Source: Octopus vulgaris (taxonomy: Eukaryota). From it: a DNA stretch of 64,000 bases. This document shows, in pieces, positions 8,889-62,032 of the stretch. The notes beneath the pieces were generated by a model, which saw only the letters and a list, made by a program, of their open reading frames with translations, did no database searches and had not been told where the DNA came from. The DNA lies in assembly GCA_951406725.2 (NCBI GenBank), contig OX597817.1, positions 95,852,001-95,916,000 on the forward strand. The letters are read 5' to 3'. Every line of letters begins with the position of its first letter. Position 1 is the stretch's first letter. The translations under genes and the position numbers were made by a program.

Positions 8889-10478
8889 TCAATCTGGTTG
8901 CCGGGTAGGTCTATAGTTCTTGTAGTTCGCATACTTCTTATGCATACAATTTGGGGAGTGTTCTGAGATTTTGTTAAGGAGAGGGCCTTTGGCGAACAAG
9001 ATCTCTAGGCTCTCCGATATGCAGAGGTCACAGCAGGTATGGCCTCCTGTGTACGAGCGCGCCTTCTGTAGTAGTTTCCACTTGGTCTTGAAGGGGATGG
9101 AGTTCCTTTTAAGGTACCAGATGTGGGCGGCGAGGGTAGTTTGGTTGGATTTATCTTGTCGCCGGAACGAGTGTGTGTGTGCGTACCAACGGGTCTTAAA
9201 GCTGTTTGACGTCATTCCTATGTAGGATTTTCTTTTATCGTCAGGGCCTGATCTTACCTCGCATGTATATACTAGGTCCCTCTGTAGGCAGTTGTTGTTG
9301 AGGGGGCAGGTGGTTTTATCAGGGCAGTTGCAATTGCTATCGGACGTTGGATGGGCCTCGGAAAAAGTAGATATGTTAAGTTTTTTCACATTGTTGTTGG
9401 CTAGGTTCCTGGCTAGATTGGGCGTGGTAGAGTAGGAGAGTCTAATAGTGTTCTTATTTAGGATAGTGTAGTACTTATGTTGGGTGGGGAAGTGTTTCTG
9501 TAGGAGAGTGAAGAAGATTTTAGCTACAGGTGTAGCGACCTCACGGTTGAAGGGGGGTTGTACCAGCTAATGTGTCTTCGTCTATTTTTCCTGGGTTGGC
9601 GTGGGGCTATACTAGTATAGGTAATCTTATCTTTGAAGCCACTGCGGGCCAGGGCCTCGTTGTAATAGGGGGCTGCGGCCTTAAAGATATCTTCCGTGGC
9701 GGACAGGCTAGAAATTCTAATTGAGACACTTTTTACTAGGTTATCTAATATATTTTTGGGGTGGTTGGAATTAATATCTATATATTTAAGGGATTCATTC
9801 GGTTTGTGGTACGGGTAATAAAGTGAGGTTTTTAAGTCGAGGGTGACATCAAGGAAGTTAGCTTTAGTTAAGTTGGATTCTAAGGTAATCCTAAGGCCTA
9901 AGTTTTTAAAGAAGGTGTAAAGATTTTTCCGGAACCCATCCGTGGTCCTGGGGTTTATTTTGTGGAGGGCGAAAAGGCCGTCATCGCGGTAAAGACCACC
10001 GGAGAGGCCTGTGAATAGGGTTTTCAGCCTATGGAGGATGAAAAGGCCCACTAGGTCACTTATTTCAGCAGAGTCGTTAGCACCCATGCTGACGTCGAAG
10101 GGGGTCACAGATTTTTTGTTGATCCAGTGGGATCCGTCATAGAAAAGAAAAGTCTTACGTGCGTGGAGTATCACATCTTGCTCGACCTCGGTGATGGTGG
10201 AAGACCTCCTGGCGAAGTTAATCGAGTCGATCAGCAAGCTCTCCGATATGGAGGCGTAGTAATCCTCGATATCCAGTTGTAGGAATCGGGTGTTGCTTTT
10301 ATCAGGTAAATCCTGGAACCAGGTTATTGCCTCGGAGGTCCTATTCCAGAGTGGGAGGGTGAAGCTTCACGCATTTTTGGTAAAATCCTGTCCAGGATCT
10401 TCTTGCTGACGGATCCGATGTCAGACTTGGTTGGGTTAATCAAACGGACCGACGGTTTATTTTCGAAATGGTCTTTGT
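8889..10478 (-). pseudogene. Penelope-type reverse transcriptase + GIY-YIG endonuclease, two frameshifts
   Basis: [93 protein letters not shown]; frameshifts near 10360 and 9545. Confidence 0.92.
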
Positions 10479-10624: not shown

Positions 10625-11348
10625 ATGTGTGTAAGTTTATATGTATGTATCCGTCTATATAATAGGTAACTGCACGTACATATACTTAATATTTTTTATT
10701 TATTATTTATTTTTTGAGTATGCATGTATGAATAACTGCGCGTATATATATTTTACTATTTACTTATTTTTTGAGTATGCATGTAAGTATGAATATAAGG
10801 AGGCGCGTGTGTGTGTGTGTATGTGTAAGCATAGATATATGTATAATCTTACGCATGGGTGTACTTATGTGTATATATGGACGCGCGCGTGTGTGTGTGC
10901 GTGTAAGGGGACGCATGTACATGTGTATGTGTGTGTATGAGTATATGAGTATGTATGTATGTGTATATGTGTGTGTATGAATATATATGTATATATGTAT
11001 ATGTATATAATTAATCAATATAGGGTGGCAAAAAAAAAAAAAAAATTTTGTAGAATTCTTTTGCCACCAGCGGCCTAGTGGGAAAAAATTAAATAGTCAT
11101 AGACCATTTTTAAGTTCAACATCAACAATCAAGGAACGGCCATAATAGGCCATTTTAGGCCATTTTTTTTGCCACCCTATATTGATTAATTATGAATTTT
11201 CTGGTTAATTCCGTAATGGAATCGACGGCTTATATTTATTTGCTGCCGATAAATTTGGCGCGAGTGCGACGATTTGAAAATTTTAGGTCAGATATAAACT
11301 TGGCAAGGTCGGAAATGCCTCGTGAAAATATCTGTTCCGACTTGGGCT

Positions 11349-11455
11349 ATTTCTTACTGAAGAATCTGAGGGCCTGTGGAAGATTGGCTTGATTTAATTT
11401 AATCAGGTTAGTTTACCATTAATCAGCAGATGAAACGGTATATCGTATAAGAAAT
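11349..11455 (+). ncRNA. Type I hammerhead ribozyme, variant A
   Basis: AUUUCUUA-CUGAAGA-AUCUG...CAGAU-GAAAC-GG-UAUA-UC-GUA|UAAGAAAU; predicted cleavage after 11447. Confidence 0.88.
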
Positions 11456-11845
11456 TACAGGGTAAATGTTTTTTAAATTTTCTCCTGGTTTACGGAATTA
11501 ATTTTTATTTGCGGTTGAAGCTTTGGCTGTTATTTCTAGTGGGTGAATGGCCTATTATGGCCGTTCCTTGATTGTTGATGTTGAACTTAAAAATGGTTTA
11601 TGACTATTTAATTTTTTCCCACTAGGCCGCTGGTGGCAAAAGAATTCTACAAAATTTTTTTTTTTTTGCCACCCTATATTGATTAATTATGAATTTTCTG
11701 GTTAATTCCGTAATGGAATCGACGGCTTATATTTATTTGCTGCCGATAAATTTGGGGTGAGTGCGACGATTTGAAAATTTTAGGTCAGATATAAACTTGG
11801 CAAGGTCGGAAATGCCTCGTGAAAATATCTGTTCCGACTTGGGCT

Positions 11846-11952
11846 ATTTCTTACTGAAGAATCTGAGGGCCTGTGGAAGATTGGCTTGATTTAATTTAAT
11901 CAGGTTAGTTTACCATTAATCAGCAGATGAAACGGTATATCGTATAAGAAAT
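11846..11952 (+). ncRNA. Type I hammerhead ribozyme, variant A (copy 2)
   Basis: Same sequence as 11349-11455. Confidence 0.88.
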
Positions 11953-12077
11953 TACAGGGTAAATGTTTTTTAAATTTTCTCCTGGTTTACGGAATTAATT
12001 TTTATTTGCGGTTGAAGCTTTGGCTGTTATTTCTAGTGGGTGAATGGCCTATTATGGCCGTTCCTTGATTGTTGATG

Positions 12078-12116
<39 letters not shown>

Positions 12117-12236
12117 ACAATCAAGGAACGGCCATAATAGGCCATTCACCCACTAGAAATAACAGCCAAAAGCTTTAACCGCAAAATAATGTCAATTCCG
12201 TAAACCAGGAGAAAATTGAAAAACATTTACCCTGTA

Positions 12237-12343
12237 ATTTCTTAGACGATGCACCGTTTCATCTTCAGTTTAATGGAAAACTAACCTGATTAAATTAAAT
12301 CAAGCCAATCTACCATAGGCCCTTAGATTCATCAGTAAGAAAT
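12237..12343 (-). ncRNA. Type I hammerhead ribozyme, variant B
   Basis: Minus strand: AUUUCUUA-CUGAUGA-AUCU...AGAU-GAAAC-GG-UGCA-UC-GUC|UAAGAAAU. Confidence 0.9.
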
Positions 12344-12729
12344 AGCCAAAACCGGAACAGATATTTTTCACGAGGCATTCTCATTGCTACCTCGTCAATA
12401 TCTGACCTAAAATTTTCAAATCGTCGCACTCGCGCCAAATTTATCGGCAGCAAATAAATATAAGCCGCCGATTCCATTACGGAATTAACCAGAAAATTCA
12501 TAATTAATCAATATAGGGTGGCAAAAAAAATTTTGTAGAATTCTTTTGCCACCAGCGGCCTAGTGGGAAAAAATTAAATAGTCATAAACCACTTTTAAGT
12601 TCAACATCAACAATCAAGGAACGGCCATAATAGGCCATTCACCCACTAGAAATAACAGCCAAAAGCTTTAACCGCAAAATAATGTCAATTCCGTAAACCA
12701 GGAGAAAATTGAAAAACATTTACCCTGTA

Positions 12730-12836
12730 ATTTCTTAGACGATGCACCGTTTCATCTTCAGTTTAATGGAAAACTAACCTGATTAAATTAAATCAAGCCA
12801 ATCTACCATAGGCCCTTAGATTCATCAGTAAGAAAT
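12730..12836 (-). ncRNA. Type I hammerhead ribozyme, variant B (copy 2)
   Basis: Same motif 493 bp from the previous copy. Confidence 0.9.
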
Positions 12837-13223
12837 AGCCAAAACCGGAACAGAAATTTTTCACGAGGCATTCTCATTGCTACCTCGTCAATATCTGACC
12901 TAAAATTTTCAAATCGTCGCACTCGCGCCAAATTTATCGGCAGCAAATAAATATAAGCCGCCGATTCCATTACGGAATTAACCAGAAAATTCATAATTAA
13001 TCAATATAGGGTGGCAAAAAAAAATTTTGTAGAATTCTTTTGCCACCAGCGGCCTAGTGGGAAAAAATTAAATAGTCATAAACCATTTTTAAGTTCAACA
13101 TCAACAATCAAGGAACGGCCATAATAGGCCATTCACCCACTAGAAATAACAGCCAAAAGCTTTAACCGCAAAATAATGTCAATTCCGTAAACCAGGAGAA
13201 AATTGAAAAACATTTACCCTGTA

Positions 13224-13330
13224 ATTTCTTAGACGATGCACCGTTTCATCTTCAGTTTAATGGAAAACTAACCTGATTAAATTAAATCAAGCCAATCTAC
13301 CATAGGCCCTTAGATTCATCAGTAAGAAAT
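13224..13330 (-). ncRNA. Type I hammerhead ribozyme, variant B (copy 3)
   Basis: Same motif 494 bp from the previous copy. Confidence 0.9.
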
Positions 13331-13588
13331 AGCCAAAACCGGAACAGATATTTTTCACGAGGCATTCTCATTGCTACCTCGTCAATATCTGACCTAAAAT
13401 TTTCAAATTTTCACCCTATATTGATTAATTATGAATTTTCTGGTTAATTCCGTAATGGAATCGGCGGCTTATATTTATTTGCTGCCGATAAATTTGGCGC
13501 GAGTGCGACGATTTGAAAATTTTAGGTCAGATATTGACGAGGTAGCAATGAGAATGCCTCGTGAAAAATATCTGTTCCGGTTTTGGCT

Positions 13589-13695
13589 ATTTCTTACTGA
13601 TGAATCTAAGGGCCTATGGTAGATTGGCTTGATTTAATTTAATCAGGTTAGTTTTCCATTAAACTGAAGATGAAACGGTGCATCGTCTAAGAAAT
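13589..13695 (+). ncRNA. Type I hammerhead ribozyme, variant B (inverted copy)
   Basis: CTGATGA at 13597, GAAAC at 13672, GTC at 13685-13687, stem I atttctta/taagaaat. Confidence 0.9.
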
Positions 13696-14167
13696 TACAG
13701 GGTAAATGTTTTTCAATTTTCTCCTGGTTTACGGAATTGACATTATTTTGTGGTTAAAGCTTTTGGCTGTTATTTCTAGTGGGTGAATGGCCTATTATTG
13801 CCGTTCCTTGATTGTTGATGTTGAACTTAAAAATGGTTTATGACTATTTAATTTTTTCCCACTAGGCCGCTGGTGGCAAAAGAATTCTACAAAATTTTTT
13901 TTGCCACCCTATATTGATTAATTATATATATATATATATATATGGATATATATATGCGCGTATATATATGTATGTATGTGGGTGTGTGTATGTGTATAAA
14001 TGTATGTATGTATGGATGTATGGATGTATGTATGTATGTATACGTATGTATGTGTATGTGTGTATATGTATGTATGTGTATGTGTGTATATATGTGTATA
14101 TGTGTGTATATGTGTATATATGTGTATGTATATGTGTGTGTATGTATATATGTGTATATATGTGTGA

Positions 14168-21064: not shown

Positions 21065-21821
21065 CCATAGAGTTTTGTTTTGATTTTACACCGAAGAAAA
21101 AAGTGTTTTGTTGAGAATCCATTTACTTAACAACGAAGAAATAAAGAGACAGGTAACAATTTGTCAGTGAATTACACAATATAAATGGGTACAATTTCCG
21201 AGGCTTCCACCACACTCAGCCTGTTTTTCGGACCACAAAAAGGGTTTTGTAGCATATTAGGAGGCCAGAGTAGTTGATTCCATGCAAAAAAAAAAACGAT
21301 TTTGTTTTCTTAGTGAAAATCGTGCGAGTGTTAATCTATAAACTTACCAACATTTTCCCCATTCATTTCTGTTTATGAACATGTATACGAGCAAAACAAC
21401 ATATATGCAATTGATGTACGTACGTGTATGTGTGTTGCCCATATATATTTATATTATATATATATATTATATTTCTGTAACCTGGGCATGTATATATATA
21501 TACATATATATATATCTATATATATATATATATACGACGGGCTTCTTTCAGTTTCCGTCTACTAAATGCACTCACAAGACTTTGGTCGGCCCGAGGCTAT
21601 AGTAGAAGACACCTGTAAAAGGTGCCACGCAGTGAGACTGAACCCGGAAAAATGTGGTTGGGAAGCAAGCTTCTTACCACACAGCCACTGTAAGCGTCTA
21701 GTGTGAGGCGCTCATTTCAACTAGGTTTCCGAAACTGTCACCCATCTAAGTACTCACTAGGCTCGACGTTGCTTAACTTCGATGATAAGACAAGATCCGG
21801 TGCATTCAATGTGAAATGGCC

Positions 21822-21859
<38 letters not shown>

Positions 21860-31100: not shown

Positions 31101-32560
31101 GGATTTGCCGCCAAATCAGCTGCAGTCTGTTCAGTAAAGTAAGTTCGTTGGCCATTTTCCAAATGAACCGCTAGTTGTATGATGGCGGGGTGCCTTTGGT
31201 GAAGTGGAAACCCGAATATCCGCCAAAAAGCTTCACCACTGCTTATGTACCGACCTGCCATGTACTGTGACACCTCGTCCATGCTATTGTCCTTTTGAAG
31301 GCCAAACATGGCAGCGTCAGAACCCTTGTTAACATATTTACATATATACTTTATAGACTTGACTGAATGACAGAACTCCACATTTATGTGAGCGTTAAAA
31401 GTTTTCATCAGAAATGGACAGTACGGCACTACCCACCTATTATCCACTTGATGACCCCGTAACGTTATAGTGAATCCACCATTGTCAGGTTGCCTTCTTC
31501 TGTACAGTGGGTATCCGTCGCGGCCGGTCTGGGTCTCGTCCACGAACCTCTTTGGGTACCGTTTAGTGCACACGTGGTCTTTGTGGCATGAGGAGAACTT
31601 TTGAAAACCAGGAGCGCACGGACCGTGTACCATGTGTGCCTTCACAATGTCGTACAGCTGCCGGTTAACAGTTGGGTCCGGAATTTCTGCTGCAATGAGA
31701 TCATCAAGAACTGTTGGGTCTATTTTGTTGACCAACCAAAGCAAAATGTGCGCGTGTGGCAACCCTCTTTTCTGCCACTCAACAGTATACATGTGGCAGT
31801 TAACAGGCCGAAAAACCTGTTTTTTTTTATTAAAAGAATGAGCTTAGCCAGTTTCTGCCTGAAAACCCTTGCAATAATATCATGGCGATGATAGTACTGC
31901 TGCCCTGGGAAAAGTTCTCGCGTTACCTCAACCCACTTTGGGTTACATGTAAAGGTAATGAATAAATCGGGTCGCCCATAATGCCGAACGTAAGTAATAG
32001 CGTCTTGTGTTCGCTCGTGCATGTACCGTGGGCCCCCTATATAGGTTGAGGGGAGAATGCACATTTTGCCGATATTGCGGGCGTCAGTGTCATTCTTGGT
32101 GAATGAAATGTGGAAAAATGTAAACCGTGGAAGGAAAAGAAATAAATATTAGCAGCTGAAAGAAATTTTTTATGCAAGTATAGCGACAGAGTGTGTAAAA
32201 TGTATAGAAATTTGAATTAAAAGCCAGAAAAGAAAGTTAGATTTGCAAGAAAGGAAGTAGTTTACGTACATGTTCGAAATGTGAAGTGCTGTTTAATCAA
32301 ATATTTGCGTAAAGTGTATAGAAACGTAACTTGAAAAAGATAATGAATTGAAATTTTTAAGAAAGGAATTTGTTTACATACATGTGTGAAATGGCAAATG
32401 TTTGTGCAGTTGTCCGAAATGGAACCAGGGTAAATGTGTGGAACTGATGTATTATAATGAATAGTCCTTCTTGAACTGAAAACCAGTGGTGTAGCATATA
32501 AGAGCATAAGAGATCTTCTTCTAGCCAAAATGGATGACTAGTCTGAATGGCTCACCCCTG

Positions 32561-34619: not shown

Positions 34620-37600
34620 TTACGACGCCATCTTTGTTTACATTCTGAGAATAACTTTCTTTCAATTTCTGTTTCGCTTTCATATGTTTATTTTCCTGTA
34701 ATTAGTTTAGAATTAAATAATTCCTTCATTTCCTCACTTTCCTCTACCTCCTCTCTCTTCCCTTACATATATTCCCCCACTTCCAGCTCCTTTCTCCATT
34801 CCTTTATCTCTCTTTACGCTTACCCTTTCCCTCTCTCTTGCATATCTTACTCCTTTTCCCATCTCTCCTCCTCCCTTTCATCTCTCCTCCTCCACTTCTC
34901 TCATTTCTCTTTCCTTTCCATCTCACCTCACACTCTCTCATATACTTCTCATTCGCCCATTCTTCTCACTCCGTCTCTCCCTCTCTCTCACATCCTTCAT
35001 CCTGTCTCTCCTTCACTCTGTCTCTCTTTCTCTTGTTATCCTCTCCTCCCCTCTGTTTCTCTTTCTCTTCCCCTCCTCTCCTTCACTCTGCCTCTCTTTC
35101 TTTTCCCCTCTTCTCCTTCACTCTGTCTCTCCTTCTATTCCCCTCCTCTCCCCCTACCTTCCTCTATCTTTTTAGCACACCACACCCCCCTTGCTTTCCT
35201 CCTATCACCCTCTTCATTTCTTTCATAGCACCTCTCTCTTTCCTTCCTATCTCCCTCTCTCTTTCCCTATTTCCCCCCTCTGTGTTTCTCCGTCTCTACC
35301 TTTCTCTATCCCTCATTACCTCTCTAGCCTCTACTCCCCCTCTGGACCTCAAAACGAAGATAGCACCAAAGTGGGAAAAGAAAGAGTTAAATCTTCTGCT
35401 GAGAGCATGGACGATTGCTAGTGGTGATCCGCTGAACAACATCATCACTGCCGCGCTAAAAAACAATGGATTTCATAGAACCATTGACCAGATAGAGCGG
35501 AAGAAAAGTGAGTTTATCCGGTCTTATATGCTTATAACACCACACATCAAAATACTGGACAACATAATTGAAAATTATTGTGGCAAAGCGGATGAGGATG
35601 AAGAGGACGAAAAATAGAAGGAACTCAGAAGTCTCTGTGATCCAGGGGTTCCTCAGGAAAATGGATCACCTACCCCGGTGAACGACCAGGTAGTGAAGGA
35701 TAGGAGAACCAAGGGAGCAGAAACCGGAAGCCCCCCTGTACCAGTGGTCCTACGAAGAAATGAAAAATTAGAAAAACAGAAGAAAAAAGGAAGGACCGAA
35801 AACAAAATAAGGAGGGAAAAGGAGGAAAAGGCAAAACAACCAAAGCTGAAACCCCAACCCACCACACAAACAGCAGAGAACCCCATGGAGGATCCAATGC
35901 CACCCAGTACACTTCAGAAACGAAGAAATCTGGAAGGCACCGAAGAACCTGTAAGTTCTACCTGTGGGGCAAATGTTGGCATGGTGAGGATGGCAAAAAC
36001 TGCCGGTTCGCCCACCCGACACCCCGCCAGAACTTCAGGGGACTCAAGGAGAAAAACTTTACCGAGGGAACACAAGAAATGTCTCCCAGGAAAACTTTCA
36101 AAATCGAAGTGCGCTCCTCAGATGTTCTGCGCAACGCAGCAGCTGAGCAAGAGTCTTTTTTATGCATGGCGGAAAGAATTGTCCGGCAGCTAACCTGGCT
36201 ACACCAAGCACAGAGAAGGAACCCTGCCCACCACTATGCAAGACCACCACAGTCAACAGACACGGGATGGCCTCCCCTAACGCCTGCACAGCCGTCACCC
36301 CAATACTTTTACTAAATATTGGGGGCCTGTTGCATCAAAATAAAAACAAAATTTCTTTCCTGAGAGATCTTACTGCATCCAATCAAGCCCTATGCATAGC
36401 ACTTGTGGAAACTCACCTCAACCCTGATATAGAGGACGCAGAAGTACACATACCAAACTATGCCATACTGCAAACAGACAGAAGGGAAAGGAGCCATGGT
36501 GGAGTTGCTGTATACATCCGAGATGACCTCACACCCCAGGTCTTAATGACATACTCAAATTCGGTATGTGACACTTTAATATAGTCATATGCAATACATA
36601 TTGCCCACCGGATGCCCCAAATCACATAGGAAAGTTTGAAGATTGCCTCACAAGAATTAAAGAAATCCTCATGAATCTGGAACACCACGTGACCGTATTT
36701 CTTATGGGTGATTTCAACTTCCCCAATGTCAAATGGTCCGAAGGTCACATACTCTCAGGAATGAATCATTTCAAGCAAGTACAGGTGGAGACCCTGCTCA
36801 ACCTCACTAGTGCCTTATTCATGGAGCAAGTTGTACTCAAGCCAACTAGGGCGAATAACATTCTGGATCTCTGCTTCACCAACAATATGGACATCATTCA
36901 TGATGTGAAAGTGACACCGACATCAGTTTCGGATCACAACATAATAGAGCTGTCTATGTTTGGGCCAAAAGTAACCAGAGACATACAGCCTAAAGGAAGC
37001 ACCCGAAATCTCTCCAATCTGAACTTCCACAAAGCAGATTGGAAATCGATCCAAAAAGAGATCCTCAGAGAGGACTGGCCGGAATGTCTCTCCACACCAG
37101 ACATTGACATGAAACTAGAATGTTTCATGTCTTCTGTGCCAAGCCGTATGCCAGAAATATGTCCCAGAGCACAAGGCCAAAACAAATAGGAGCAAGATTC
37201 CAAGAGACAGGAAGATCCTCATGAGACGACGGACGAAGGTTGCATATCGTCTCAACCAACATCCCAAAAGTATCGAAACGCCCCGCCTAAAAATAACACT
37301 GATGGAGATCGAAAAAAGGCTGCAACAATCCTATGTGAAGGAGAAAGCAGACAAAGAAGCCTGGGTTATAAAAAACATTAAATCAAACCCAAAGGCCTTC
37401 TTTCATTACGCGAAAGAAACAGTCTCAGTGCACTACAAGATAGGACCCTCATCCAAAAGGATGGCTCCCTCACAGACAGTCCAACTAAGATCAGTGAGAT
37501 GCTGAATGACCAGTTCAAAAGTGTCTTTACCACCCCGTTGGAACACAGACAAGTGAACGAACCAGTGGAATTCTTTGCCGCCTCACCTATAACCAGCGAG

Positions 37601-39297
37601 GCGGTTACAATAGAATGTATTGACATTAGCGAAAAATATGTCCTACTAGCCATAGATGAAGTGGACACAAACTCAGCTGCTGGTCCAGACGGTTTCCCAG
37701 CCATCCTCCTCAAAGCGTGTAAGCATGCCCTGGCAAAACCCCTCAAGATTCTCTTCCAGAGCTTTCTTGCGAATGGCAAACTGCCAAGCAAGCTGAAGGA
37801 GGGAATAATATGCCCAATACATAAAGGGGGAAGTAGAGCAGATGCCAAAAACTATAGGCCTATCTCTCTGACTTCACACATCAGCAAAGTCATGGAACGG
37901 ATAGTCAGAAAGAAACTAATCGCATTCCTTGAGGAAAATAACTTGCTGAGTGATACCCAGCATGGTTTTCGACTAGGTAGGAGCTGCCTGACCCAGCTCT
38001 TACAGCATTATGACTGGGTGTTGAGGCAGTTACTCAACAAATCAAATGTGGACGTAATCTACCTTGATTTTGCAAAAGCTTTTGACAAGGTGAATCATGG
38101 TATGATATGCCACAAACTGCATGACCTTGGCATAGCTGGAAAACTTGGAGTGTGGTTGCATGACTTCCTGAAAGATAGGAGTCAGGCAGTAGTGGTTAAT
38201 GGAGCCACCTCTATGAACACACAAATAGTGAGCGGTGTTCCACAGGGCACTGTCTTGGGACCACTACTTTTTATAGTGGCCCTCTCAGATATGCCCTCAA
38301 ATGCCCGGATAGCCACTCTGGCCAGCTATGCAGACGATACGAAAGTCTCGCAGAAAATACAGAACCCCAGCGATGTTGCACACCTGCAGCAGGAGTTGGA
38401 CTCAATTTACAGATGGGCTGAGGATAATAATATGCAATTTAATGCTGAAAAATTCCAGGTCCTGCGCTACTAGCATCCAAAACTGAATATTAAACTTACA
38501 GGATACACCGGTCCACAGGGAATTTCAATCCCAGAGCCTAAGTCTGTGAGGGACCTGGGTATCGACATGAGTGATGATACCTCTTTCCAAGTGCACGTTA
38601 CCAGGATGGCGACAAAGTGCAGACAACTGGCTGGGTGGATCCTAAGAACATTCAGAACCAGAGATAAGGAAACCATGATGGTCCTCTGGCGGACATTCGT
38701 CCTCAGCCGCCTGGATTACTGCTCACAGCTATGGTCACTCACCAGTGTAAAATTAACAGCGGACCTTGAAGCAATCCAGAGAAGATTCACAAAGAAGATC
38801 GTCTCTTTGCAACAGCTCAGCTACTGGGAAAGGTTGAAACAGCTAAGACTCTACTCCCTGGAGAGAAGACGGGAGAGGTATGCAGTAATATATGTCTTGA
38901 AGATCCTGGAAGGAATTGTGCCAAATTTTGGCATTGTAAGCTACACCAATGCTAGAACGGGACGACACTGCATAATGCCAAAGATCCCAGCAATGCCATC
39001 ACGCTTCAGGACCAGCTACTGCACAAGCCTGGGTTTCAAGGGCCCACAGCTTTTTAATATTCTCCCAAAGAGTCTGAGGAACATGCACAAAGTAGATGTA
39101 GCGGTTTTTAAATCAAAGCTGGACATCTTCCTGTCAAGAGTCCCAGATGAACCTACCTCACGGCAAGAGGTGCAAATGAGAGTAGCTATATCAAACTCCA
39201 TTCTTCACCAAGTGCCACATATTAGACGAGGTTCGTCGTAATAACAGTGTAGCACAAAACGGCGGTGCATCAGTATGGCCGCAGCTCTGAGCTGAAA

Positions 39298-58473: not shown

Positions 58474-61400
58474 TTCTTTGTTGGAAGAAAAGAGGATTTA
58501 CAGTAAAAACAAACCCTCAGCCCTCCCTCCAGCGTATAAATTACTTTAAAAAGAAATACTTTAAAAGGGAAAAACGTGAGAAAAAATATTTAATTAAATT
58601 AACTATAGACAAAAACATGTGCATTCTCGCACATAAACACATTATTCACACATATACAAACATACGCAGACGCAAATATTGAAGTACTAAATGGCACGTC
58701 AAATGATATTTAACCGTGTGGAACATTTTACATGCATATCAATATTCTAAAGTTGGACCTACTATTCCTTATCCTAAAGCTGCTTCAGGCAACTAGGAAG
58801 GGTTCCTGACTCGTTTCACCGTCTGCTTTCAATCTTGGATTGTGATTCGGTTCAGCCCAAACTCTCTCAGATTTTGTCTGCTGTTGCCTACTCCTACAAG
58901 GATTGCAGCTGTTTTTGTTCCTGCTTTAACTCAGATTTGTCCTAGAGCCCATAGAAGATTGTTTTTGGTCAACCATCTATCATGTCAGCTACCTACAGAT
59001 CGAAACTGAGATCTGCGAGAAGGGCTTCTTATCAGTCCTACCTCTGGTCGCATGCTGTAGTGCTGACAGAGAAAGTGAATTGAGGGCGAATCGAAGTAAA
59101 GTAGATACCTCCGTCAACGATGCTATCTCTGATACCCCTTATTCTGCTTGTTCCCCAACTCCCGCCCCTCAAACTTCACAGCTCAGCATCGTCTATACCA
59201 ATTCGTGCTCCTTATTTCCAAAGTTCAGCGAACTATTTACACTGACCATGCGTGATTCTTCTGATGTGATAGCTATCACCGAGACTTGGCTGACTCCAGC
59301 AGTAAAGGACTCAGAAATCCACCTACAGGACTACGCCCTCTTCAGATGTGACAGAGAAAAAAGGCGAGGTGGAGGTGTTGCTGTGTATGTTAAATCTGAT
59401 CTCAAACCGTCCAGCGGTATTCTACCCACTAATGCTCAACCTACAACAAAATTCGATGCCGTCTATTGCAAGCTGAGCCTATCCGGGTTTTGCCTGCCCG
59501 TGTTAGCTGTCTACAGGCCGCCTCTTGCCGACCCCCAGGACGATGCTCATTTACTCGAAGCGATAAGGTTCGTTTCAGCTTCTCATGACTGTTTGATATT
59601 AGGAGACTTCAACTCTCCCACGATCGATTGGCCCGCATCAATTTGTACATCATCTTCCCGGTTCGGCCAGGCCCTTCTTGACGTGGCTGAAGATTGTTTT
59701 CTATCGCAACATGTTGAATATCCGACAAGGCATCGGTCTGGGCAGCAGCCATCTATGCTGGATCTGGTATTCTCCCGCTATCCAAGATCAGTGTCAGACG
59801 TATCTGTGTGCGCCCTTCTTGCCAAGAGTGATCATGCGGTCCTGAAGTTCGTCATACACACAACTTTTTCTACGCCCACGACTACTTCGCTGCCACGTAG
59901 AGTCTTCTCTGCAATTAATCTTGAAATTCTAACCGAGGCTTCCGCGCTTCTGGACTGGTGATCCCTGATGACGTTGTCCTCAGTTGACGAACTATGGTCA
60001 TCCCTTAAAGCATATGTAATCTGTTTGACTGACCAGGCAGTTCCCGTTGGGCTTCCCAAGAAGAAGAAACACAAGCCCTGGGTGACGAAGAAGGTTAAAC
60101 GAGAACTTCAACTCAGAGATATTGCTTGGGCTGAATTCAAAAATCTGGATTCAACTGCAGCTTTTGAGGTGTACAAAACTCAACGAGACCGAGCCGTGAA
60201 AATTGAAATGGAAGAACGCTTCAGATATGAATACAAAATCGCGGCAAACGCCAGTACCAATCCAAAAACCTTCTTTGCCCATGTTCAACGGAATTCCCGC
60301 TTGAACAACCAAATTGCAACGTTGGTAGACTCAACAGGCGTATCGATTGAGGACCCTTATCAACAGAGTCAATTATTTGCCGAAGCTTTTTCAACTATTT
60401 TCAAACAAGATGATGGTCGTGAACCCCCTCCATTTGATAGATCGGTACCTCCAATGCTTCGATTGGTCATCACTCGGGACGAAGTCGAACGCGTTATTCA
60501 AGGCCTCGATGTCAACAAGGGTCACGGCCCTGACTGCATACACCCACGGGTTATCAAAGCGTTGGCTCCGGTCATCTGCAAGCCCTTAACACATCTATTC
60601 AATATGTCATTGGCGACGGGTGCTATACCTGCGGACTGGACAACAACGATAATCTGCCCAATTTTCAAGAAAGGGAGCCGCGAAGACCCACTTAACTACC
60701 GACCGGTTTCCCTTACATCAATAATCAGCAAGATGTTCGAAACCATCCTTAAGAAAAGTATGATGCTCCAGCTCCAAAACACAGCCTCTATCTCTGATTC
60801 CCAACACGGCTTCGTGCCGAAGAGATCATGCTTGACCAACTTACTGGTAATGGAAGAATTGGTGACGCGCATCCTCGATGATAGTGATGCTGTTGACATC
60901 GTTTTATTGGACTTTGCCAAAGCTTTTGACTCGGTAAACCACCGCCTATTACTTGTCGAGCTTCAAGCATATAGTTTCCATCCGGATATTGTACGATGGG
61001 TTGGTGCCTTCCTCTCAGATCGCTCCTTCCAAGTCCAAGTTAATGGTTCGCGGTCCGACATCTCCAGTGCGAGCAGTGGCGTGCCTCAAGGTTCAGTGCT
61101 TGGGCCCTTATTGTTCTTAGTCTTCATAAATGACTTGCCCGACGACCTCACGCAACACACCCTTCTATTTGCCGACGACTTCAAACTGGTCGCTCCTCGC
61201 AGTGATATAGAGGATCTTCGTCGATGCCTCCACCAAATGGGACCTGTGTCTGAACGTGTCAAAGTACTGTCATCTGCCTGTTGGCTCTCCTCCTGCAACT
61301 CAATTTGATTTCGAGCCGGGTCGTCTGCTGCTGGAGAGGACCGATCAGGTAAAGGACCTGGGTATATTGGTGGATTCCTCCTTTTCGCCTTCGGCCCAGT

Positions 61401-62032
61401 GCGTCCATGCTGCCAACAAAGCACGCGGAATTCTGTTCTTGATTCGACGGTCATTCGGAATGCTCACAGCAGCCATATTCCTACCGCTCTATGTCACGCT
61501 GGTGAGACCCATATTGGAGTACGGGATTCAAGCCTCTTCTCCTTATCTCCTCAAAGACATACAGCATCTCGAAAGAGTCCAGAAGCTGGCTACCCGCATG
61601 GTTCTTGGTCTCAAGAATTTGTCTTATGAAGAAAGGCTGAAGACGCTCGACCTTTATTCTCTAGAAAAACGACGACGCCGTGGAGATCTCATTCTTGCTC
61701 ACAACATCATAAGCGGAAAGTGTAACCTCTCGAAAGAGCTGTTCTTCACTCCTGCTCCAGAGCGTCGGCTGCGGGATCATTCCGAAAAGCTCTATCTGCG
61801 ACGATTTCATCTCAATCGAAGGAGAGGGGCTTTCTCCGTCCGGGTTGCGGATCCGTGGAATAAGCTGCCTGACGAGATGGTGAAGATGCCGACGACCGCT
61901 CGGTTCAAGGTCTCCCTTGACCTCAAGTGGCCTGAACTCTTTACATGTACCGCCCGGTACATAACTCCATGTCCCCCTACAAGGCCTTGCTTTTTGCTTT
62001 TTGAGCCAAAAAACTAACTAACTAACTAACTA
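58474..62032 (+). mobile_element. Young CR1-group LINE (APE + RT) with (TAAC)n tail, inserted in gypsy pol
   Basis: IAITETWL, GDFN, SDH, NYRPVSLTS, LDFAKAFD, SGVPQGSVLGPLLF, FADD; one in-frame stop at 59959 and one lesion near 61240; ATGC duplicated at 58470 and 62033. Confidence 0.88.

Follow-up and report, generated by a model that had tools for sequence, protein, structure and literature searches.

Neighbouring two-armed insertions in the Octopus vulgaris genome belong to a hammerhead-bearing repeat family with features of a Penelope-carried retrozyme

The window analysed here, a 64,000-nucleotide stretch of the Octopus vulgaris genome (contig OX597817.1), contains two separate, neighbouring young insertions, A and B, of one dispersed non-coding repeat family. 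Judged by its sequence, this family displays the testable features of a non-LTR retrozyme carried by Penelope-like elements (PLEs), and differs from the known type in its long stem II, its long tail and its strictly two-ended inverted insertions. We consider it quite probable that the element is a retrozyme mobilised in trans by a PLE, with priming from both target strands on RNA that is partly self-cleaved.

Results

A structured scan of both strands of the 64-kb window isolated six type I hammerhead folds in units of ~495 bp, two of variant A (scan positions 11357 and 11854, plus strand) and four of variant B (13597 on the plus strand; 13322, 12828 and 12335 on the minus strand), with zero further type I hammerheads beyond the 11357–13597 region. 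The span given in the preliminary description, 11349..13695, runs from the first to the last plus-strand ribozyme, and pairing between adjacent units of a tandem transcript had been proposed for it. The A and B units belong to separate and oppositely oriented insertions, and therefore their sense RNAs do not lie side by side in a single transcript. Each insertion consists of a head-to-head pair of arms, and the two lie tail to tail with a (TA)n tract between them (Table 1). In A and B alike the outer ends abut (TA)n, one arm ending at site 1 (about 132–134 nt 3' of the predicted ribozyme cut) and the other at site 2 (about 238–240 nt). The long arms of A and B (11162–13408) form a ~900-bp inverted repeat (90%) around the TA tract, read-through of which would yield long double-stranded RNA. 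Matches to microRNAs, all below the Rfam gathering score, turned out to be this same inverted repeat and were set aside. Adjacent double insertions are also present at loci L048 and L166.

Table 1. Components of insertions A and B, with their predicted hammerheads, in window coordinates.
Feature	Positions	Strand	Basis
Insertion A, two head-to-head arms of ~497-bp unit, in (TA)n tract	11007..12078	.	
Insertion A short arm, outer end at site 2, bears tail; in99, out239	11007..11154	-	
Insertion A long arm, 1.8 units, outer end at site 1; in207, out134	11162..12078	+	
Hammerhead A1: stem I 8 bp, CUGAAGA, 68-nt stem II, GAAA, loop UAUA; predicted cut after 11447	11349..11455	+	scan, folding
Hammerhead A2; predicted cut after 11944	11846..11952	+	scan
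(TA)n target tract separating insertions A and B	12079..12112	.	
Insertion B, two head-to-head arms of ~493-bp unit, orientation opposite to A	12113..13925	.	
Insertion B long arm, 2.6 units, outer end at site 1; in318, out132	12113..13408	-	
Hammerhead B; predicted cut after 12245	12237..12343	-	scan
Hammerhead B; predicted cut after 12738	12730..12836	-	scan
Hammerhead B; predicted cut after 13232	13224..13330	-	scan
Insertion B arm with outer end at site 2 (tail); in204, out238	13412..13925	+	
Hammerhead B: CUGAUGA, loop UGCA, GUC; predicted cut after 13687	13589..13695	+	scan, folding

Every fold comprises an 8-bp stem I, the core, a 68-nt stem II, GAAA, a 4-bp stem III with its tetraloop, and UH, and all six window copies carry CUGANGA, GAAA and NUH in order together with an open stem I. 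Folding gives stem II as a long hairpin, places internal loops in stems I and II, and returns z-scores of -3.7 and -2.65 for the window hammerheads. With a stem II of this length and a stem III of four pairs, the term 'minimal' used in the preliminary description is wrong. Searches with the Rfam hammerhead models gave no match at the gathering score, nor any among 40 hits at E up to 10, and the 68-nt stem II may be the reason; since so long a stem II escapes these models, such ribozymes may be undercounted. Pair 10.1–11.1, which is usually but not obligatorily G-C, is A-U in 30/32, G-U in one and unpaired in one. Locus L199:5870-6660 holds a second hammerhead family, unrelated to this one, in which the stem II insert is 60 nt long and two head-to-head arms again lie between (TA)n tracts.

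The A and B units are ~92% identical, differing in a global alignment by 27 substitutions and 20 gap columns, with 11 of the substitutions inside the ribozyme. The four differences described earlier are all present: CUGAAGA against CUGAUGA, GUA against GUC, UAUA against UGCA in loop 3, and a stem II base of five against four pairs. The last of these had been regarded as a tolerated swap. The change in pair number is real, but the fifth pair (G-C in A, A-U in other subfamilies) is lost in B as an A-A mismatch and is uncompensated.

Across the 2.8-Gb genome the core pattern has 2,441 matches and the reversed control has 0. A pattern for the inner hairpin finds 2,639 matches, the first 100 places of which correspond to the same 38 loci; because this pattern ignores the core, the loci chosen with it are unbiased towards intact cores. 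All 40 scored matches to variant A are 100% identical and lie on five contigs, and 37 matches represent an older family that is ~80% identical. Exact site-1 ends next to (TA)n were counted at 232 + 410, that is at least 642, dispersed sites. We parsed 158 records, comprising the window itself, 38 loci selected by the hairpin, 80 selected by their termini (taken in list order, skipping those already sampled, a ribozyme not being required), 17 older-family loci (7 overlapping duplicates having been dropped) and 22 loci chosen by loop type or identity; 20 short loci from the variant A search were left out. The unit is 488–497 nt long, tandem and non-coding, with no ORF, a type I hammerhead in each copy and a GC content under 45–50%.

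Some of the longer arrays have features of their own. L166:1-4565 is an array of nine or more units in which a G-C pair private to this array flanks the core and stem III forms a perfect palindrome of 10 nt; a second insertion adjoins it. Among 17 insertions with four or more units, variants recur every two or three units in L059, L046 and partly L032. This periodicity is suggestive only, and could reflect circular multimer templates, unequal exchange or assembly error. When the rolling-circle variant test was applied to L030, its two arms differed from each other. The four-gamete test scored 175/946 pairs, a figure confounded by recurrent N7 changes and by a poorly aligned indel block, and it was set aside. 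An apparent excess of A>G/T>C changes in run X1 (37 and 26 places at 80% likeness) was rejected as a sign of editing, as it is gone at 88% (5 and 9, as in other runs).

The two-armed layout is general to the family. We identified 125 two-armed insertions, 108 of them with both ends at defined sites, and in 107 of the 108 one end lies at each site; site 1 is used twice in 1 and site 2 twice in 0. The remaining 17 have one end elsewhere, and 7 of these belong to the older family, in which site 1 lies a little further out. In the 38 loci that were not selected by their ends there is one end per site in 23/23, with 5 more having one end elsewhere, and 11 of these loci are single-armed, some with a residual tiny second arm. 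(TA)n adjoins 261 of the 266 outer ends that lie at defined sites; among loci not end-selected the figure is 59 of 62. The tail is ~105–110 nt. The smallest two-armed insertion (L191:6980-7030) is ~50 bp and is joined at a GGCC palindrome. We rejected a MITE or DNA transposon as the source, because the two ends correspond to different positions within one unit and the arm lengths vary.

The 80 terminus-selected loci have 139 arm ends, and 39 of them are located 1–40 nt 3' of the predicted cut, a rate 3.5 times as high as elsewhere. This cluster had first been noticed in earlier loci and was then tested on the new 80-locus set. When one site-1 arm is taken per insertion, 17 of 71 stop 1–40 nt 3' of the cut (7% expected), and the neighbouring windows for site-1 arms hold 7/78 in the 60 nt before, 3/54 in the 40 nt after and 1/51 in the window beyond that. 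Of all windows along the unit, the one with the greatest excess spans the cut, with 26 of 78 ends compared with 7.9 expected and 0/300 permutations matching it, and the stronger stem II hairpin shows no excess of arm ends. Both arms stop near the cut in 13 of 45 pairs and one alone in 3 (13/1/2/29, p=2e-8), a coupling that is not specific to the cut because equal inner offsets are general among paired arms (within 15 nt in 21/61). Stops at the first cut number 12/32 for A-type and 5/39 for the others (p=0.024, post hoc).

These stops beside the predicted cut likely record RNA self-cleavage in the living animal, and we hold cleaved RNA templates to be the rather probable origin of the pile-up. 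The ends mostly fall 5–37 nt short of the cut, by stem I and a small inverted repeat, so that stalling of the reverse transcriptase (RT) at a folded stem I, or a microhomology hot spot at offsets 10–40, could also account for them without cleaved RNA. That account, which we think unlikely but worth weighing, is favoured by the offsets themselves (mostly 8–13 for site-1 arms and 15–37 for site-2 arms, not 1) and by the inverted repeat at offsets 11–40, which several junctions use (L121, L150). Site-1 arms stop there on later passes too (6/28), although later-pass stops would equally fit partly cut multimers. It sits less easily with the longer stem II hairpin and other hairpins, where there are 0.11–0.13 ends per 100 nt versus 0.61, or with single-arm insertions, which need no arm-to-arm homology and also stop at offsets 7, 8, 9 and 16. 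The layout of the arms raises a separate alternative, in which one primed cDNA folds back to give the inverted arm, and the element, once inserted, gains its tandem units through local amplification of a satellite-like kind. Self-priming has been proposed for PLE palindromic junctions (PMC3846280) and local amplification for retrozymes (10.64898/2026.07.22.740005), the coincidence of inner offsets at 21/61 junctions is of the kind that fold-back would leave, and the periodic variants in L046, L059 and L032 could stem from unequal exchange. However, neither arm lies within the other, and neither could be its copy, in 33 of 104 main-family two-armed insertions, which favours two primed cDNAs over fold-back. 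Both arms can moreover be multi-unit, and precise common outer ends recur at hundreds of dispersed sites, as counted above for site 1; we consider fold-back improbable.

Selection on RNA catalysis had been proposed from the comparison of A with B, which on its own is weak evidence: the chance of the 11 core bases escaping change is 0.30–0.54, and the probability that both core changes fall on N7 and H17 is 0.013. The argument gains from the family as a whole. Parsimony on 273 copies from 99 insertions places 0 propagated changes at the 11 invariant core bases, 5 at N7/H17 and 117 elsewhere in 320 sites, and in the same sample 3 terminal changes hit the core; a McDonald–Kreitman-like test of core against other sites was not significant (p=0.26). 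Covariation was examined on 32 real haplotypes picked as representatives. In these, 8 of 36 pairs changed on both sides and 98.1% of 1,143 cells are paired, compared with only 0–2 doubly changed pairs in slid controls; 20 of 500 shuffles reached 8 pairs, a control that is inflated by related sequences. By helix, double changes affect four pairs in stem I, one in the stem II base and one in stem III. Most compensatory cells come from one deep split, to the older ~80%-identical family, which contributes the stem I and stem III swaps, and the independent cases are an A-U/G-C swap in stem II and a change from A-U to G-C beside the core in L166. RNAalifold, as an independent prediction, returns stem I and the inner hairpin of stem II but neither the stem II base nor stem III. 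At family level, the covariation and the core changes support selection on the predicted hammerhead fold.

Loop 3 is palindromic, as had been noted for A and B, in nearly the whole family. A genome census with fixed flanks counted UGCA 1,827, UAUA 807, UACA 26, UGUA 2 and UUCA 2 times, so that 2,634 of 2,664 counted copies carry UGCA or UAUA. On the tree the loop passes from UGCA to UACA to UAUA inside lineage A, and since the A backbone is also found with UGCA (6 insertions) and with UACA (4 arrays of 3–8 copies), loop 3 changed after lineage A had split. Computed duplexes give -17.5 kcal/mol for B/B, -13.6 for A/A, -9.0 for A/B and -7.1 for UACA/UACA, and the stem III monomer hairpin is computed at -0.1 kcal/mol. 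The non-palindromic UACA has transposed at least four times, and at least six other haplotype groups are mutually distinct yet all carry UGCA.

The preliminary description had further suggested that imperfect pairing between their loops 3 could keep the A and B lineages apart; on this reading mixed dimers would not cleave. The weaker computed A/B duplex and the near-complete division of the census between two loops are what such isolation would predict, but the history of the loop does not support it: UAUA arose within A via UACA, and many subfamilies diverged while sharing UGCA. UACA spread even though its own duplex is weaker than A/B, and within an array each unit already has its own variant as neighbour, which makes sorting by loop unnecessary. 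Palindromy was lost and then regained within lineage A and is therefore not what separated A from B. We regard isolation by loop 3 as very improbable; the best explanation is that A and B are ordinary subfamilies from different source copies, which loop 3 does not isolate. The single loss and regain of palindromy fits mild selection for dimers, but it is one event. Dimer cleavage is established for hammerheads with a weak stem III (PMC4209133, PMC7229834, PMC6765202) and by analogy is plausible for those of A and B. We are doubtful that the ribozyme instead acts as a monomer, or with protein help, and that its palindromic loop is incidental. The four possible pairs in stem III, versus 1–2 in dimer-obligate motifs (PMC4209133), would suit a monomer, as would a palindrome-preserving swap that was a single event through a viable non-palindromic step. 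The marginal stability of the stem III hairpin speaks for dimers, as do the whole 10-nt stem-loops of the older family and L166, which are perfectly palindromic, and the copy number of UACA, which is low next to that of UAUA.

Frames resembling PLEs lie near 14 of the 158 records, and in none of the 158 is a PLE frame contiguous with the element. The genome does contain a young PLE family with intact 811-aa frames (RVT_1 above the cut-off, GIY-YIG below), which we take to be Neptune-like by its cysteine linker; its 16 loci share no sequence with the ~495-nt unit. The protein search behind this comparison scored 150 of 10,959 candidates, and one family was compared for pLTR homology. In a self-comparison, the PLE family beside L043 proves to be two-ended in the same way, with different termini and a different hammerhead-like motif; it was rejected as a sequence parent but may still be the mobiliser. 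We infer the mobiliser for this reason, the examined PLE sharing the layout of the unit but no sequence with it. By eye, the terminal repeat of the 811-aa PLE at L190:1641-1680 (plus strand) contains a minimal hammerhead-like motif, a U3-A8 variant with a CCGG palindrome, and the stem I strands of this motif mirror those of the ~495-nt family. A 495-codon frame overlaps upstream of the RT frame in the same PLE family.

Within the window, positions 8890-10450 (minus strand), 550 bp from insertion A, contain a frameshifted element, truncated at its 5' end, that shows a CxC...C linker together with motifs resembling those of RT and GIY-YIG. By these motifs it is presumably Penelope-like (Nematis-type); Pfam returned no RT or GIY-YIG match for it. 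A degenerate 5S rRNA match is found at 21713-21827 (minus strand; 42.5 bits, gathering score 38). Long frames of the window at 31843 (minus), 36572-39240 (plus), 58930-62000 (plus), 25053 (minus) and 2877 (plus), we take by resemblance to be, in that order, a Helitron helicase, two LINE endonuclease/RT remnants, a mariner transposase and a vWA-domain exon.

Discussion

As far as their available texts go, the animal non-LTR retrozymes (PMC7229834; 10.64898/2026.07.22.740005) are like the octopus family in having non-coding, low-GC tandem units with a type I hammerhead in each, in coexisting with autonomous PLEs, and in forming ribozyme-variant subfamilies (axolotl). The unit of 488–497 nt compares with 170–400 nt for retrozymes in PMC7229834 and falls within the range of 51–972 in 10.64898/2026.07.22.740005. 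Unlike those retrozymes, the present family has a 68-nt stem II, dispersed two-armed inverted (TA)n insertions and two fixed ends; retrozymes are expressed as circular RNA, and in this family circles are predicted. The word 'inverted' is absent from the available text of PMC7229834 and appears once, in a reference title, in that of 10.64898/2026.07.22.740005, where 'tail' is absent.

The PLEs with an endonuclease (EN+) and their non-autonomous derivatives (PMC8557442, PMC3846280, PMC11167929) share with the family tandem and inverted 5'-truncated copies, a one-ended tail, microsatellite targets and a hammerhead upstream of two RT start sites, but the octopus element is without an ORF and its tail is ~105–110 nt instead of 30–40. 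Frangieh 2024 (PMC11167929) observed neither a strand difference in start site nor RNA ends at the hammerhead cut, whereas here each site is used once in nearly every insertion and arm ends pile up at the cut. The minimal dimer-forming PLE hammerheads (PMC4209133; Lunse et al. 2016 via PMC6765202) are also type I with a weak stem III and a palindromic loop 3, and close motifs on opposite strands are likewise found among them (PMC4209133, PMC6765202). In these, helix III is absent or 1–2 bp, helix I is 4–5 bp and helix II 7–8 bp (PMC4209133), compared with a stem I of 8 bp, a stem III of 4 bp, a stem II of 68 nt and A-U at 10.1–11.1 in the octopus family. Among the literature listings searched there is no report of arm ends at a hammerhead cut or of this family, and the word 'ribozyme' is absent from the available text of an octopus repeat annotation (PMC13282606). 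The family may already be catalogued.

In the PLE-driven reaction that we favour, multi-unit transcripts would be cut by the hammerhead, likely as dimers of adjacent identical units that pair via stem III and loop 3, and ligation would likely close some of the products into circles again. Both strands of a (TA)n tract would be nicked by a Penelope-type RT/GIY-YIG enzyme, which would use the RNA as template for two cDNAs, one primed at site 1 and the other at site 2, some 105–110 nt away; short homologies would then join both cDNAs head to head. Where the RNA has the ribozyme cut as its 5' end, both cDNAs would stop there and leave a stub of ~120+220 nt; on circles or uncut multimers the cDNAs would run on, up to about nine units. 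In vitro, a PLE cleaves both strands of AT-rich DNA and has two internal RT starts, and its hammerhead is dispensable for insertion (PMC11167929). Among Xenopus retrozymes, 8 of 9 dimers did not cleave (10.64898/2026.07.22.740005).

The origin of the inverted ends and tail of PLEs, and hammerhead cutting in vivo, are both stated to be open (PMC8557442, PMC11167929), and the idea that retrozymes ride on PLEs has been argued from co-occurrence and phylogeny (10.64898/2026.07.22.740005). The type of element described here is known; what the octopus adds is hundreds of young, short and readable insertions, which make both of the open Penelope questions countable, and a natural loop-3 allele series (UGCA, UACA and UAUA) for dimer cleavage. 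We put at about even the chance that these insertions preserve, like fossils, the Penelope reaction as it runs in vivo, in which one enzyme dimer would engage one RNA at two fixed sites and make one cDNA per strand of the cut (TA)n target, both stopping at the hammerhead cut where the RNA has cleaved itself. If true, this would explain the inverted pLTRs and the one-sided tail; it would also mean that the retrozyme hammerhead cleaves in the germ line, and that the cleavage efficiency of each subfamily could be read from the genome.
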